From Escherichia coli (GTDB lineage: Bacteria > Pseudomonadota > Gammaproteobacteria > Enterobacterales > Enterobacteriaceae): a stretch of DNA of 64,000 nt. The position numbers and the translations under genes were made by a program. The stretch is from NCBI RefSeq assembly GCF_048403405.1, contig NZ_CP183129.1; one strand, written 5' to 3'. Below are positions 16,669 to 54,411 of this stretch, piece by piece (the first letter of the stretch is position 1; every line of letters begins with the position of its first letter). The notes under the pieces were generated by a model that saw nothing but the letters and a program-made list of their open reading frames with translations, was not told the DNA's origin and ran no database searches.

Positions 16669-19265
16669 TTATTTTTTCCCTTCAACCCATTTGCCATCAA
16701 CATAAAATGCTGACCAGCCAGTCGCCTTTCCGTCTTTTTCCGAAGAGACATATTGCTGTTTGGTTTTACGGCTAAAGCGAACCATGGTCTTATTACCTTC
16801 CGGATCCTGCTGTGGCGCATCGGCCAGATAACGCAGTTTTTCCGGCAGACGGTCGCGGAAGCGATAAAGCTCTTCCACCAATGGCGCGCGTGTTTCACGC
16901 GATTTCGGGAAGGTATTGGCCGCCAGGAACACACCGGCAGCACCGTCACGCAGCACGAAATAGGCATCTGATTTTTCGCACGGCAGCTCCGGTAATGGCA
17001 CCGGATCTTCCTTCGGTGGTGCCACTTCGCCGTTACGTAAAATCTTACGTGTGTTTTTACACTCTTCGTTAGTGCAGGCCATGTATTTACCGAAACGTCC
17101 CATTTTCAGGTGCATTTCAGAGCCACATTTTTCACACTCAACGATCGGGCCGTCATAACCTTTAATGCGGAATTCGCCCTCTTCGATCTCGTAACCGTCG
17201 CAGGTTGGGTTATTACCACAGACATGCAACTTACGTTTCGGATCGATGAGATAGCTGTCCATCGCCGTGCCGCATTTCGGGCAACGACGTTTTGCGCGCA
17301 GCGCGTTGGTTTCAGCGTCTTCACCTTCCAGCACGTTCAGCACTTCGTTTTCCGGCACCAGGTTGATGGTGGTTTTGCAACGCTCTTTCGGTGGCAGAGC
17401 GTAGCCGGAACAGCCAAGGAATACCCCGGTGCTCGCTGTGCGAATACCCATTTTGCGACCACAGGTCGGGCAGTCGATGCTGGTCAGAACCATCTGGTTC
17501 GGGCGCATCCCCCCTCTTCCGGATCTTTTTCAGCTTTATCTAACTGCTGGGTGAAATCCGAGAAGAAGTGATCCAGTACAGCTTTCCACTCTGCTTCGTG
17601 ATTTGCCACCTGGTCGAGGCTGTTTTCCATCTGTGCGGTGAAGTCGTAGTTCATTAACTCACGGAAATTCTCTTCCAGGCGATCGGTGACGATTTCGCCC
17701 ATTTTTTCCGCATAGAAACGACGATTTTCTACTCGCACATAGCCACGATCCTGAATGGTCGAAATGATCGACGCATAGGTAGACGGACGACCGATACCGC
17801 GTTTTTCCAGCTCTTTAACCAGCGATGCTTCACTAAAACGGGCTGGCGGCTTGGTAAAGTGCTGGGCTGGTGTCAGTTCAACGAGCGTCAGAGCATCGCC
17901 TTTATCGACTGCCGGTAATATACGATCTTCATCGCCTTTACGCAGTGCAGGCATCACTTTTGTCCAGCCATCAAAGCGCAAAATACGACCGCGTGCTTTC
18001 AGGCGGAAATCGCCCGCACCAACGGTCAGCGTCGTGGAGTCATATTTCGCTGGGGTCATCTGGCAGGCAACGAACTGACGCCAGATTAACTGGTACAATT
18101 TTTGCGCATCTGCTTCCATATCCTTCAACGATTCCGCCATCACATTGACGTCAGAAGGACGAATCGCTTCGTGCGCTTCCTGTGAGTTTTCTTTGCTGGC
18201 GTACTGATTCGGACTTTCCGGCAGATATTTCTTACCAAAATTATCGCTGATATAACCGCGAACCATATTTACCGCGTCCTGACTCAGGTTGGTGGAGTCG
18301 GTACGCATGTAAGTGATATAGCCTGCTTCATACAAACGCTGCGCCATCATCATGGTTTTTTTCACGCCAAAACCAAGACGGGTGCTGGCAGCTTGTTGCA
18401 GCGTAGAGGTAATAAAAGGAGCGCCAGGTTTACTGGTTGTCGGTTTGTCTTCACGTTCCAGCACGCTGTAGCGCGCTTTTTCCAGCAGACTTACCGCAGC
18501 CTGTGTTTGTTCTTTGTTGACCGGGCGGAACGGTTTGTCGTTCTGATGAGTCACCTGCAACGCCAACGCATCACCAGATGGCGTGGTCGTGCTGGCATCG
18601 ACTTCCCAGAACTCTTCCGGTACGAACGCTTTAATTTCACGCTCACGCTCGACCACCAGGCGGACCGCCACCGACTGCACACGACCTGCAGACAGACCAC
18701 GAGCGATCTTTTTCCACAGCAGCGGCGAAACCATATATCCCACCACGCGGTCCATAAAGCGACGCGCCTGCTGGGCATTAACACGATCAATATTCAGCTC
18801 ACCTGGTTTGTTAAATGCCTGGCGGATCGCGTTTTTAGTAATTTCGTTAAACACCACTCGGCTATAGCGCGCATCATCACCACCAATCACTTCCCGCAGG
18901 TGCCATGCAATGGCTTCCCCTTCGCGGTCAAGGTCGGTTGCGAGATAGATGTGGTCGGCTTTTTCAGCCAGTTGTTTCAGTTCAGAGACGACCTTCTCTT
19001 TACCAGGCAACACTTCATAGTGCGCCTCCCAATTGTGCCACGGGTCAACCCCCATACGGTTGACGAGAGCGCCACGTTCATCCTTTTTAGGCTTTTTAGC
19101 CGTCTTGGTGGAGGTAGAGTCGGCACTCTTTTTGGCAGCTGAGCCACTGGTCGGCAAATCGCGGATGTGACCGACGCTGGATTTCACCACGTAGTCACTA
19201 CCCAGATACTTGTTGATCGTTTTGGCTTTTGCCGGGGACTCAACGATGACAAGAGCTTTACCCAT
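16669..19265 (-). pseudogene. topA: DNA topoisomerase I, reading frame broken by 1-nt deletion in a C6/G6 run at 17509-17514
   Basis: N-terminal 593 codons (from [20 protein letters not shown] at 19265) end at ..KDPEEGG then out of frame; C-terminal zinc-ribbon part continues in another frame from [20 protein letters not shown] (ORF 16669..17508). Confidence 0.85.
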
Positions 19266-19644
19266 ATTCACCTTACCTAATTTGATTCTTCCAGGAATGC
19301 GTCGCACGTTGATAAACCTTCCACTGGCAACGAGTTACCGATATGGACTCGCTCTCTGCGGATATCAACCCCTTGTCGTGACTCTGTTCACGAAAATTCA
19401 GGTGACTGAGTTAACAGGTCTTGGCCTACAGGCGCTATAGCACGACGGAATTTTGGTCGAATGTCAAGCAAATCTATTGCCAGATTGACGAAAGCGTCAC
19501 ACTGTACCTGATAAAATCCGATACGCAACTTTATTAGCATGCAAAATCCAAAGTTGCCAGTAAGGCGCTCTTGCCACCAGCGTGGTATATTTGTCTGCAA
19601 GCCATGCCTGGCGTAGACTAATGTCCTTGTTTAAGGAGTAAATA

Positions 19645-49894: not shown

Positions 49895-50223
49895 CAGTTC
49901 ACCACCTGCTTAAACTCCGCGCTGAACTCAACGCGCAACATCCCGACCCGTGCAGACCACCCGGCACAGGTCACCTTTATCTGCCGGTATGCATAGGGTG
50001 GCTTCCACAAAAATGCCTTCCAGCCACCGTGCTCTGCCAGGAACGCTTCCAGATGCCGGGCCTCCTCCCGGGTCACGGAAAGCGTCACCCTGTATGTTTT
50101 CAGGTCAGCATTCAGCCCTGCCGCCATACGCTGTGAGTACCCGTCACCAAAACGCACTTCACGCACCGATGGCTGCGAGTTCACCTCCATATCCGGCTTC
50201 ACTTTCCAGCGAAAGGTTTTCAT
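49894..50223 (-). CDS. M: minor tail protein M
   Basis: 109-aa ORF in lambda M position. Confidence 0.85.
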   Translation of the reverse strand: MKTFRWKVKPDMEVNSQPSVREVRFGDGYSQRMAAGLNADLKTYRVTLSVTREEARHLEAFLAEHGGWKAFLWKPPYAYRQIKVTCAGWSARVGMLRVEFSAEFKQVVN

Positions 50224-52793
50224 CGACCGCTCCCTGATAACAGACCGCCATCACGCAACTGCAGCCGGAGTTCATCCTGTGCCCCCTTGCGGGCCATGTC
50301 ATACACCGCCTTCATCAGCTGCGACCCCGCCTGTCCGTTGATACCGTCGTTCTGAATCACCACGTGATTGTTCTGATTAAAATTAATACCTTCGGCCCGC
50401 CGCATCTGCGCCGGACTTCCGGCACCGCCGACATAACCACCTTCCGCATACCCGCGCATCAGACGATACAGGTTGCCGACACCAATCCGGCTGGTTGCCT
50501 CCTTCGTGAAGACAAATTCACCACGGTGAACAATCCCCGCTGGCTCATATTTGCCGCCGGTTCCCGTAAATCCTCCGGTCGCAAAATGGAAGTTCGCCGC
50601 CGCAGCCTGAATGGCTGTACCGCCTGACGCGGATGCGCCACCACCAACAGCCCCGCCAATGGCGCTGCCGATACTTCCGACAATCCCCACCATTGCCTGC
50701 TTCAGAAAAATCTCTGTCAGCATGGACAGCACAGAACGGGTGAAACCACGCCAGTTCTGCTCACTGCCGGTCAGCATCGCCGCCATATTCTGTGCAATAC
50801 CGTCAAAGGTCTGCGTGGCCGCGTTTTTAACCTGCGAAAAACTGTCCGTCGCACTTTCCGCCCACTCGCCCCAGCCGGACTTCATCCCGGCCATCCAGCT
50901 TCCACGAAGCTGCTCCTCCGCAGACCAGGTGTTCTTCAGTGCCGATGTGGCCTTCGCCAGCGCAGCCGGATTATCACCGTACACCTCACGAAGGCGCTGC
51001 TCTTCCGACTCCCGCTGCGCCTGACGGTCAGTGAGGCCGCGGGCTTTTGCGCTGATTGCCGCCTGCTTCGCGCTCTGCTGCTGTTCAAACCGCGCCGCCT
51101 GCTGTGCCAGCTCATTCAGCCGCTTCTGGTGTTCTATCTTGTCGCCCAGCTCAGCCAGCTGGCGTTTGTACTCCAGCGTTTCTTTCTCATGGGCCAGCAG
51201 GGATTTTTCCTGCTCAGATAACTGCCGTTTCGTGGCGGCCTCTTTCAGGATCACATACTGATTTTCCGCTTCCCATAAATCCCGGCGCTGCTGGCTGATT
51301 TTCTCATTCACACCGCTGTGTTTTTCCAGCGTCCTGAGCTCGGTTTCAAGCGCCAGCATGGCTGCATGCGCCCGGTCTTCCTGGCGCTCACCGGCAGACA
51401 CCTTCACACCTGACGGCTTTTTCAGCGTCGATTCATAATCCTTTTTTGCCGACGCCATCAGCGTGTTGTAATCCGCCTGCAGGATTTTTCCGTCTTTCAG
51501 GGCCTTATTCAGCTCTTTCTGACGGGCGGTATATTTATCCAGCGGCGTCTGCAGGCGCTCATACGCCTTCTGCGCCTCTCCGGTATACTTCAGCTGTGAC
51601 GCCTCACGCTCAGCCCGGTCCCTTGCCGCCAGTTCACCGGCTTTTTCCATATCCGACTGCAGCGTGGCCGCTGCCAGACCCAGACGGGCATTTTCCCGGT
51701 CATCCCATGCCCCCTGAAGGTTCGCACGAAAAGAGGAGGTCTTTCCCCGGCGCTGGCTCCGGCTCTGGTACCACTGCCATTTTTTATCCGCCTCATCAAA
51801 TGCCTTCTGCGCACTGGCGAGCATATCCGCTGAGGATTCAGGACGACCGATATCCAGAATGGCATCCCACATCGATTTGAATGCCTTCCCTGTTTTATCC
51901 GCCCAGGTCTCCAGTGTTCCCATGTTTTCTTTCAGGCGACGGGTCTGCTCATCAAAGCCTTTCGTGGCGATATCGTTCGCCGCCTGCAATGCCCCGGCCT
52001 CGTCTCCGGAACGCTGCAGCTGTGCAACATACGCAATCTGCTCTGCCGTCACGTTACGGAACTGGCGCGCCATCGCCATCAGTCCCGACGTCGGGTCAGT
52101 GGTCAGCTTCCCGAAGGCTTCAGCGACTTTATCCACCTCCACACCGGATGCAGACGCAAAACGCGCGACACTCTGGTTGATGGCATCAAACTGTTCACCA
52201 CCACGCACACCGGCATTCATCAGGGCTGCCAGTGACTCTCTCGCCTGGTTAAACGTCAGCCCTGCTGCCTGCCCGGCTCTTGAGAGAGTCAGCATACGAT
52301 CGGCAGTCAGTCCGGACTGATTACCGGAAAGAACCAGGGTTTTATTAAACGCTGAAAGCGTGGAATCTCCCTGGTACCAGGCGTACACCAGCGCACCTGT
52401 CGCCACCGCCAGCGAGGTGACCCCGACCATCGGCAGGGTGATCGCACCGGCGAGCCCCCTGAACATGGGGATCATCCCGCCGAAGGAGTCCTTCACCTGA
52501 CCGCCCTGTTGCAGCAGGATCAGCCAGGGATTCTGACCACCGGCAAGCTGCGTGGCGATATCCGTAAACTGTGCGGGCAGGGTTCGCATGGCCGCTTTAT
52601 ACTGCCCGACGGAAATCCCGGCTTTTTGTGCAGCCAGCGCCTGGCGGCTCAGGCCCTGTTCAACAGCACTGGCGGTTTTTCTGGCGTCGGTATCCAGACC
52701 TGAAAAATGACGCCTTACCCGGCTCATCTGCTCATCGAAACGGACAGCATCCAGACTCAGGTCAATAACAAGATCACCAACCGGCTGGGACAT
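50220..52793 (-). CDS. H: tail tape measure protein H
   Basis: 857-aa ORF MSQPVGDLVIDLSLDAVRFDEQ..., lambda gpH-like. Confidence 0.9.
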   Translation of the reverse strand: MSQPVGDLVIDLSLDAVRFDEQMSRVRRHFSGLDTDARKTASAVEQGLSRQALAAQKAGISVGQYKAAMRTLPAQFTDIATQLAGGQNPWLILLQQGGQVKDSFGGMIPMFRGLAGAITLPMVGVTSLAVATGALVYAWYQGDSTLSAFNKTLVLSGNQSGLTADRMLTLSRAGQAAGLTFNQARESLAALMNAGVRGGEQFDAINQSVARFASASGVEVDKVAEAFGKLTTDPTSGLMAMARQFRNVTAEQIAYVAQLQRSGDEAGALQAANDIATKGFDEQTRRLKENMGTLETWADKTGKAFKSMWDAILDIGRPESSADMLASAQKAFDEADKKWQWYQSRSQRRGKTSSFRANLQGAWDDRENARLGLAAATLQSDMEKAGELAARDRAEREASQLKYTGEAQKAYERLQTPLDKYTARQKELNKALKDGKILQADYNTLMASAKKDYESTLKKPSGVKVSAGERQEDRAHAAMLALETELRTLEKHSGVNEKISQQRRDLWEAENQYVILKEAATKRQLSEQEKSLLAHEKETLEYKRQLAELGDKIEHQKRLNELAQQAARFEQQQSAKQAAISAKARGLTDRQAQRESEEQRLREVYGDNPAALAKATSALKNTWSAEEQLRGSWMAGMKSGWGEWAESATDSFSQVKNAATQTFDGIAQNMAAMLTGSEQNWRGFTRSVLSMLTEIFLKQAMVGIVGSIGSAIGGAVGGGASASGGTAIQAAAANFHFATGGFTGTGGKYEPAGIVHRGEFVFTKEATSRIGVGNLYRLMRGYAEGGYVGGAGSPAQMRRAEGINFNQNNHVVIQNDGINGQAGSQLMKAVYDMARKGAQDELRLQLRDGGLLSGSGR

Positions 52794-53187
52794 ATCTCAC
52801 ACCTCCCGGAATCCCCGCTGAAGCCATCATTAATGCGGCATCATCCACCATGACATCCGCCACATCCGCAGACGATAAAATATCGCGCCCTCCGTCCCCA
52901 CCGAACCGGACGCCTCCGGCAAGTCCTGCCGCTTTCTGCATCAGCATTTTGTCCTCATCCGGCCTCTCCACCTGCTCTTCCTCATGCCGGGGGACAAGCA
53001 GACTGAAATCAGAGGGATGCATATCCGGATCGCAAAAAAACAGGCTGAGTACAGCGTACGTCAGCCCGGAAAAATGCATATCCAGCTGGGTATCCTGAAA
53101 ATAATGCGTGCGGTAAAAACGGTGCCAGTCGGCATATTCGGTGGATGTCATCCCGGCAAGCATGGCGCGCCAGTCGGGTCTCCCCAT
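52774..53187 (-). CDS. T: tail assembly chaperone T frame (expressed as G-T fusion)
   Basis: 137-aa ORF in -1 frame relative to G; joins G through slippery site at 53232-53238. Confidence 0.8.
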   Translation of the reverse strand: MGRPDWRAMLAGMTSTEYADWHRFYRTHYFQDTQLDMHFSGLTYAVLSLFFCDPDMHPSDFSLLVPRHEEEQVERPDEDKMLMQKAAGLAGGVRFGGDGGRDILSSADVADVMVDDAALMMASAGIPGGVRYVPAGW

Positions 53188-53213
53188 CTCACGCGCCAGT
53201 CTGAGGGCAAAGT

Positions 53214-53645
53214 TCAGCTCGCCGTCAAAGACTTTCCCGCAGAAAAATCATCATCAGTCAGCGTGTTATTTTTCGCCACTTCAGTAATATCAGTATCCGG
53301 ACGAACAGCTTCGATCATCCCGGACAGGCACAACACCACGTCTTCCGCCCGGGCAATGGCATCGGCAGGCCAGGTGGTGAGCACTTCCTGCTCTATCTTC
53401 ATCACGGCCTCATTCATTGACGGTGACTGCGTTTTCTGTGGATGGTTATGCCACAGGGACATCGCCACCAGAAACGCGCCGGTTCTGACGAGATCTTCCA
53501 CGCTTACCTGCAGGTTGCCGCAGGATTCTGCCTGTTCTGCACGCCGTTTCAGGAGGGCAAGATGCTCGATACGCTGCAGCGCAGACAATTCGGAAAGCGT
53601 GACAGACACACCGTTATATTCAAATTGTTCTGTTTTCAGAAACAT
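53214..53645 (-). CDS. G: tail assembly chaperone G
   Basis: 143-aa ORF MFLKTEQFEYNGVSVTLSELSALQRIEHLAL. Confidence 0.9.
   Translation of the reverse strand: MFLKTEQFEYNGVSVTLSELSALQRIEHLALLKRRAEQAESCGNLQVSVEDLVRTGAFLVAMSLWHNHPQKTQSPSMNEAVMKIEQEVLTTWPADAIARAEDVVLCLSGMIEAVRPDTDITEVAKNNTLTDDDFSAGKSLTAS
53232..53238 (-). promoter_or_regulatory. programmed -1 ribosomal frameshift site (GGGAAAG) for gpG-T
   Basis: heptamer G GGA AAG near 3' end of G in zero frame; -1 frame continues into T ORF. Confidence 0.8.
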
Positions 53646-53658
53646 GTATTACCTCCGT

Positions 53659-54411
53659 TTACCCTGCAGCGCCCGCTTCAGTAACGGTGACTTCAGCCAC
53701 TGCGGCGAACTGACCATTTCCGCTCACCACAGGGATCTGCACCTTACCTGTCGCCACGCCGTTTACCGTAATTGTCATATCTTTCACACTAATGGTGGCT
53801 TTCGACGGATCGGCGGAAACCGCTCTGAACGTCTTGTCGGTTGCACTTTCCGGCTCAAAAGAAACCGTCAGGGTGGTTGTTTTCCCTTTTGCCACCGTAC
53901 CGGATGTCGGCGTCACCTTAATCGCACTGACCGGCGTAATTTTGCTGCGTTCTTCCGCTACAGAAGGTTTACCCACGTTAGTGACTTTCACCGTGCGGGT
54001 GATCACTTCTTTCGCCGTCACGGCCTTACCGATACTGCTGACCCAGCCACGAAACACATCCACCGTGCCATTCGGAAAACGGATTTTATAGGCCCGGACA
54101 TCGCCGCTTTCAAACCAGCCTATAAGCCCTTTCTGGCCTTCCTCTCCCGGTTTCCAGGCCAGCGTAAAACTGGTATCACCTGCAGATTTCTGCCCCTGCC
54201 CGGTCGCGGTCCAGTCCGCGTCTTCATCATCCAGGTAGTTATCATCGTAGGATTCTGCCGTCATCTCGCCCGGCGTCAGATCCTTCACCTTAGCCAGTCG
54301 CTGCCAGTCATCGTCTGACAACGGGTTTGCATAAGCATCACCCTTGCCGTTGTAAACCCACAGAGTGGTACCGGCACCTTTTACCGGCTCAAGGGGATTT
54401 GGTGTTGCCAT
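53659..54411 (-). CDS. V: major tail tube protein V
   Basis: 250-aa ORF with lambda gpV-like sequence and C-terminal Ig-like region. Confidence 0.9.

Follow-up and report, generated by a model that had tools for sequence, protein, structure and literature searches.

Putative programmed -1 ribosomal frameshift joining the tail assembly chaperone genes G and T of a lambda-family prophage in the Escherichia coli chromosome

The window, which is the whole 64,000-nucleotide stretch of an E. coli chromosome that we analysed (contig NZ_CP183129.1, assembly GCF_048403405.1), carries prophage tail genes in the order V-G-T-H, all on the minus strand. According to the list of open reading frames (ORFs) combined with frame analysis, the T frame spans 52774..53247, and it overlaps the end of G in a different phase. 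The V-G-T-H order is likewise annotated in identical E. coli DNA and in the phage PhiR12_1. The features of the locus, from 5' to 3' on the coding strand, are as follows:

53659..54411, minus strand: homologue of the major tail protein gene V, 250 codons, directly 5' of G
53656..53652, minus strand: Shine-Dalgarno sequence GGAGG of gene G, 6 nt 5' of ATG 53645
53214..53645, minus strand: gene G, encoding a gpG homologue, 143 codons, from ATG 53645..53643 to the stop TGA 53216..53214
53214..53247, minus strand: 34-nt overlap in which the G frame and the -1 (T) frame are both open, from frame analysis
53232..53238, minus strand: slippery heptamer G GGA AAG (X XXY YYZ), from sequence and phase, the same as the lambda site
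join(53645..53232, 53232..52774), minus strand: predicted G-T fusion, 290 aa
52774..53232, minus strand: T segment, 152 codons read in the -1 frame, starting at GTC 53232..53230 and ending at the stop TGA 52776..52774; it would be made solely as the C-terminal part of the G-T fusion
53154..53224, minus strand: candidate 3' RNA structure, a hypothesis from folding and covariation
50220..52793, minus strand: tape-measure gene H, 857 codons, with its ATG at 52793, so that its start overlaps the end of the T frame by 20 nt

Profile matches show directly that both halves are homologous to lambda proteins. The G product matches the Pfam family of the lambda tail assembly chaperone G (PF06894) over residues 1-119 (E = 3e-50, 169.6 bits, cut-off 27) and the NCBIfam equivalog TIGR01674 (phage_lambda_G; E = 3.5e-48, 163 bits, cut-off 74.45), and in identical E. 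coli DNA the gene is annotated as 'phage tail assembly chaperone G'. The T segment matches Pfam PF06223 (minor tail protein T; 51.6 bits, cut-off 25.9) and the NCBIfam equivalog TIGR01715 (phage_lam_T; 209 bits, cut-off 77.35). The TIGR01715 profile begins at residue 143 of the predicted fusion, 11 residues ahead of the earliest T-frame methionine (Met154, encoded by ATG 53187). The predicted fusion as a whole is matched by PHROG 32165 ('minor tail protein', 290 positions) over 1-290 of 290 (E = 1e-187), an end-to-end match which indicates that the family already exists as annotated fusions. In a PDB sequence search with the fusion, a solved relative was not found.

The word GGGAAAG occurs once in gene G, at 53238..53232 on the minus strand, seven codons before the G stop. 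It lies at offset 407 of the gene (407 mod 3 = 2) and is read in the zero frame as gcG GGA AAG (Ala-Gly-Lys), which is the phase of an X XXY YYZ heptamer; from the slip site, the C-terminus of G runs ...FSAGK SLTAS to the stop. The -1 frame has many stops across the rest of G, the last of them just 5' of 53247. From 53247, three codons 5' of the heptamer, this frame is open, and a productive -1 shift is possible solely within the 34-nt overlap 53214..53247. The in-phase heptamer was found inside this region, and the codon that follows a slip, GTC, leads into a -1 frame that stays open to the end of T. Both the anatomy and the phase can be read directly from the DNA. They bear out the initial annotation, which had claimed a GGGAAAG near the end of G in the correct phase and a -1 frame that runs on into T: the interval it had assigned, 53214..53250, covers the G stop, the heptamer and the opening of the -1 frame, all on the minus strand, which it had left unstated, and the 152 codons that follow carry the PF06223 and TIGR01715 matches.

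The bare word GGGAAAG is no more frequent in the window than expected (7 vs. 8.5), and therefore the argument rests on phase and placement rather than on the presence of the word. Given about 11 in-phase positions in the overlap and a word frequency of 7 per 128,000 positions, the chance of an in-phase GGGAAAG in the overlap is about 6e-4. We also scanned the 7 GGGAAAG sites and 43 in-phase X XXW WWZ heptamers of the window for the same layout, defined by an ORF of at least 100 aa, a heptamer at most 20 codons from its stop and a -1 extension of at least 100 codons, and the site in G was the sole one with this layout. The 30 nt 5' of the heptamer contain no visible Shine-Dalgarno sequence that could act as a stimulator, as one does in dnaX.

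The G-T frameshift mechanism is already known (Levin 1993; Xu 2004, 2013, 2014), and for lambda it is documented in later articles in which these studies are cited (PMC5009743; PMC3296357; PMC7618472). In lambda, a low-level -1 shift of about 4% occurs at G GGA AAG and yields gpG and gpGT at about 30:1, a ratio that is critical for tail assembly (PMC5009743; PMC3296357). Lambda tails need both gpG and gpGT for their assembly; the two proteins bind the tape-measure protein via the G part, the T part binds the major tail protein, and both chaperone products are absent from the virion (PMC5009743). The heptamer G_GGA_AAG is among the most shift-prone in E. coli (PMC5009743), and tRNA-Lys(UUU), the under-modification of which at U34 raises the shift, reads both Lys codons (PMC3296357; PMC7618472).

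Since the site and its context are identical to those of lambda, the same mechanism is the natural reading here. On all features testable from sequence, the element belongs to the lambda G-T frameshift family, and we consider it very probable (roughly 0.93) that it is the site for programmed -1 ribosomal frameshifting from G into T, the tail assembly chaperone genes that a lambda-family prophage carries in the E. coli chromosome. The shift itself, its efficiency and its role in assembly at this locus we infer from lambda. Most ribosomes on G (53645 to 53214, minus strand) would stop seven codons past the heptamer and release the 143-aa gpG, and a small fraction would slip back one base on G GGA AAG (53238..53232), with the P-site tRNA-Gly re-pairing from GGA to GGG and the A-site tRNA-Lys(UUU) re-pairing from AAG to AAA. 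The shifted ribosomes would then read the -1 frame for 152 codons and produce the 290-aa gpG-T fusion. By analogy with lambda, the G parts would coat the tape-measure protein gpH, the T part would recruit the major tail protein gpV, and gpG and gpG-T would both be absent from the virion.

Conservation of the site across relatives is likewise a direct observation. Many complete E. coli chromosomes carry the 1-kb segment at 100% identity, 852 records match it at 99% or more, and a relative is present in 3,647 of 5,426 genomes. Among 16 named phages, in which the slip site was located from the G ORF, the -1 frame and the structure of the overlap, all 16 have an in-phase slippery heptamer at the same aligned position. 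The heptamer is G GGA AAG in lambda, PhiR42 and the Stx2a/PhiR12 group, A AAA AAG in Stx1_9793 and Stx2_95, and G GAA AAG in phi80, mEp213, LLS, N15, HK225, mEp460 and Gifsy-1, as well as in one phage each from Enterobacter, Klebsiella and Providencia. In the records of N15, phi80 and LLS, the homologous heptamer is annotated as a -1 slippery sequence. Among close relatives in IMG/VR, GGGAAAG is present in 80/80 and the complete layout in 79/80; these were retrieved via T alignment and comprise near-identical copies alone (96-100%), so they are good for population conservation and not for covariation.

Greater diversity was obtained with a degenerate DNA pattern scan, which enlarged the set to 70 distinct sequences with an in-phase heptamer at the same aligned position (GGAAAAG in 46, GGGAAAG in 18 and AAAAAAG in 6). 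The scan pattern, through which many of the 70 were collected, demanded one of these three words, and therefore the counts show the mix and the phase rather than the presence of a heptamer. In the same 70 sequences, protein conservation in the T frame starts exactly at the heptamer, 5' of any start codon, with a conserved peptide from the slip codon of the form GK/KK-x-x-x-x-E-x-x-F..LAREFGRPDWR.

This pattern bears on how T should be annotated. The first ATG of the T frame, at 53187, lies 15 codons into the conserved T region. An ORF does start there, and in identical DNA the PGAP pipeline takes that codon as the start of a 137-aa 'phage tail assembly protein T'. In the RefSeq record that we examined, G and T are accordingly two CDS, with T as a free-standing 137 aa at 52774..53187 (L001 3514..3927), whereas in the lambda record T begins at the slip point. 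If the RefSeq call were taken at face value, T would be a separate gene with its own start and the heptamer would be incidental. We regard this as very unlikely. All relatives conserve the peptide encoded by the 15 T-frame codons 5' of ATG 53187, in which most changes are synonymous, and the TIGR01715 profile reaches 11 residues 5' of the methionine. The phi80, N15 and Gifsy groups have Phe at the position of this ATG, and in phi80 and N15, as in Gifsy, there is no T-frame Met before codon 25. Independent initiation is therefore no explanation for conservation that begins at the heptamer. Further, no Shine-Dalgarno sequence stands at a usable distance before ATG 53187 (the sequence there is ...GGCGCGTGAGATG), and the lambda literature describes two products, gpG and gpGT (PMC5009743; PMC3296357).

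The RefSeq/PGAP start of T at ATG 53187 is thus an annotation convention and not evidence for independent initiation. The G-T frameshift is textbook recoding, to be expected in any lambda-like tail gene cluster, and has little weight as a finding; its practical value lies in annotation, as many RefSeq E. coli genomes have identical DNA. The stand-alone T call is a systematic annotation shortfall rather than biology: it drops 15 conserved codons and hides the fusion, for which the correct product is the 290-aa join(53645..53232, 53232..52774).

Several other reading frames are broken in the window. The gene topA, on the minus strand, falls into two ORFs (16669..17508 and 17484..19307), with G6 at ~17515 where reference E. 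coli has G7. In the prophage gene C (S49 peptidase, head protease/scaffold, minus strand), one G of G7 is missing at ~58886 relative to intact copies (strain 2D); this difference, of the same type as that in topA, truncates C to a 408-codon ORF. In the prophage gene K (C40 peptidase, lambda K homologue, tail-tip assembly, minus strand), a 10-nt deletion lies at ~48648, where the reference has TTGGTGCTTC; the comparison is based on intact K copies in several E. coli genomes. The gene topA is near-essential. The topA change from G7 to G6 is probably a homopolymer sequencing error, and the G7-to-G6 change in C looks like a homopolymer miscall; we read them in this way because both are G7 to G6 and because a real frameshift in topA would be costly. 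The 10-nt loss in K may be real.

With frame breaks of this kind in topA, C and K, the offset between G and T might be viewed as one more pseudogenising indel or assembly error, a reading to which we give almost no credence. Many independent complete E. coli genomes match the G/T region at 100%, with the 852 records at 99% or more noted above, and the offset is found also in lambda and in every relative examined, among which there is no contiguous 'repaired' G-T gene. The junction contains no homopolymer longer than three. The initial annotation had set the G/T arrangement apart from the topA, K and C breaks and had called it functional design. The first point is confirmed by the identity of the G/T offset across many genomes, set against the one G of G7 missing in topA and in C and the 10 nt missing in K relative to intact references; the second is supported by comparison, as the position of the heptamer is kept in relatives and T conservation starts from the heptamer. 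The G-T site thereby provides an internal control, in which a designed frame change can be distinguished from the homopolymer-type breaks in topA and C.

The state of K and C raises a different issue, namely whether the element still works in this host. If the K loss is real, K is frameshifted, the prophage is defective and tails are not completed, in which case the site may no longer serve virion production. The signal could then be intact but a relic in a defective prophage, with no work to do; we consider this somewhat unlikely. K without 10 nt and C without one G, relative to intact copies in other strains, speak for it. However, the C and topA differences are both G7 to G6, a pattern that suggests base-calling error, and the G-T sequence is the same as that of copies beside intact K and C, so the site has no sign of decay. 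Moreover, such a relic would bear on current use and not on the nature of the element: the state of K and C is irrelevant to the identity of the G-T site and limits only what can be claimed about its current use in this strain.

The heptamers of the relatives also bear on whether the slip is ribosomal at all. Transcriptional slippage is known in other systems (reviewed in PMC5009743), and some relatives have AAAAAAG, with six A in a row, on which RNA polymerase rather than the ribosome might slip to produce the fusion. For the window, we find this highly improbable. Polymerase slippage needs runs far longer than three A, as is well established, and the run in the window has three only. All three heptamer types are compatible with tandem tRNA re-pairing that ends in A AAG, and in lambda the level of frameshifting responds to the U34 modification state of tRNA-Lys (PMC3296357). 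Ribosomal slippage on the heptamer is thus the reading that we retain.

The region 3' of the heptamer may fold. The 102 nt 3' of the heptamer have a minimum free energy of -40.5 kcal/mol (z = -3.5 vs. dinucleotide shuffles), in a predicted fold in which a GC-rich hairpin (53198..53163) is enclosed by an outer helix (53224..53217 with 53161..53154) whose conserved pairs start 8 nt 3' of the heptamer. A consensus from 10 relatives places the outer helix at columns 15-22 with 78-85 and the GC-rich hairpin at columns 41-57 with 61-76. Each of five phages (window, phi80, N15, lambda and Stx1) folds alone into this helix-hairpin architecture. Compared with synonymous recodings, the native energies have z-scores of -2.7 for the window, -2.2 for phi80, -1.9 for N15, -1.8 for lambda and -1.7 for Stx1. 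As a family-wide feature, the inner hairpin was rejected: the Gifsy-1/mEp460/Providencia group lacks the same pairs, with z = 0.0 for Gifsy-1, and the candidate structure as a whole is not conserved in the Gifsy-1/mEp460 group.

In the set of 70 distinct sequences, standard pairs occupy 88.2% of cells, vs. 28-42% with slid partners, and the covariation score is 0.153 vs. 0.082 in shuffles, with 0 of 500 shuffles reaching the native value; these figures are to be read in light of the structure having been derived from the same, related sequences and of the region coding for a very conserved peptide. For example, pair 16-84 joins the first base of codon 5 with the silent third base of Ala27 and occurs as AU in 30, GC in 25 and CG in 3 sequences; in the phi80-type sequences with G at column 16, column 84 is C (L118, L127) or U (L205). 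Within the phi80/N15 clade, stem positions that are four-fold degenerate are mostly invariant or have near-zero entropy, with variation at wobble and apical pairs, and the entropy of most unpaired positions of this kind is 1.0-1.8 bits. Recombination among lambdoid phages is another possible cause of strong nucleotide conservation at a module junction. In Rfam, no family covers the region; the lone match, to the HOXA11-AS1 lncRNA, was set aside as chance (18.8 bits, gathering score 50).

Taken together, we tentatively raise the possibility, doubtful as it is, that the G-T mRNAs of lambda and of the Stx and N15/phi80 groups, as well as that of the window, share a conserved 3' RNA element that tunes the level of frameshifting. 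A literature search, with Levin 1993, Xu 2004 and Xu 2013 outside its coverage, returned nothing specific on a 3' stimulator described for lambda. This structure is the only part of the present analysis that might be new. If it is real and undescribed, it would explain how the gpG:gpGT ratio of about 30:1 is set more finely than by the heptamer alone.

The closest comparison is with lambda itself, and the likeness that the initial annotation had asserted extends well beyond the word. The heptamer G GGA AAG and its phase are the same, the G stop lies equally many codons downstream, the V-G-T-H order is alike, and the 15 bases that comprise the heptamer and its context, TTTCTGCGGGAAAGT, are identical. 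By contrast, the ~70 nt of G that lead up to them have diverged strongly and share few columns with lambda, and the last ~25 G residues before the site are unrelated in sequence; G has 140 aa in lambda and 143 aa in the window, and the G-T region is ~75% identical at the DNA level. Conservation resumes in T, the N-terminus of which is a close match, GKVFDGEL(N/S)FAL(R/K)LAREMGRPDWRAMLAGM. Between the slip site and the first T-frame ATG, six codons differ between the window and lambda, four of them synonymously in the T frame and the remaining two conservatively (N/S and R/K). The bases just 3' of the heptamer are TGTTCG in lambda and TCTTTG in the window, and because of this difference directly 3' of the heptamer the efficiency of frameshifting may not be the same as in lambda. 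The -1 frame opens 13 codons before the site in lambda and 3 in the window, and T and H overlap by 8 nt and 20 nt, respectively. The 20-nt overlap (52774..52793) gives the T protein of the window another C-terminal tail, ...GGVRYVPAGW, where that of lambda is presumably ...GGVRYG.

Nearer relatives have the same heptamer and overlap geometry. These include PhiR12_1, a plaque-forming phage whose record names K-12 MG1655 as host (G-T 99.2% identical to the window, with seven substitutions), and a large set of Stx2a-converting phages (92.7% identical). The sole difference between the window and PhiR12_1 in the overlap is at 53227, where TTT/TTC is silent in T and changes Leu to Ser in G; this is consistent with selection on T rather than on the last G residues. 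The window has TTT at 53229..53227, and PhiR12_1 and all 80 IMG/VR relatives have TTC. At greater distance, N15, phi80, HK225 and Gifsy-1 have homologous G and T proteins (T identity 35-67%) with the slip site at the same aligned codon, and with G GAA AAG instead of G GGA AAG.

Outside the phages, the nearest parallel is the dnaX gene of E. coli, in which the heptamer A AAA AAG lies between a Shine-Dalgarno sequence on its 5' side and a hairpin on its 3' side and the shift occurs at about 50%. As at the putative G-T site, the -1 shift in dnaX takes place on a heptamer ending in A AAG and depends on tRNA-Lys(UUU), and a 3' hairpin at similar spacing may be another shared feature, that of the window being predicted. 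The two systems differ in that dnaX has the upstream Shine-Dalgarno sequence and the window site has no internal one. They also differ in outcome: the shift in dnaX, at about 50% efficiency, makes the shorter product, whereas that in G-T, expected at about 4%, would make the longer one.
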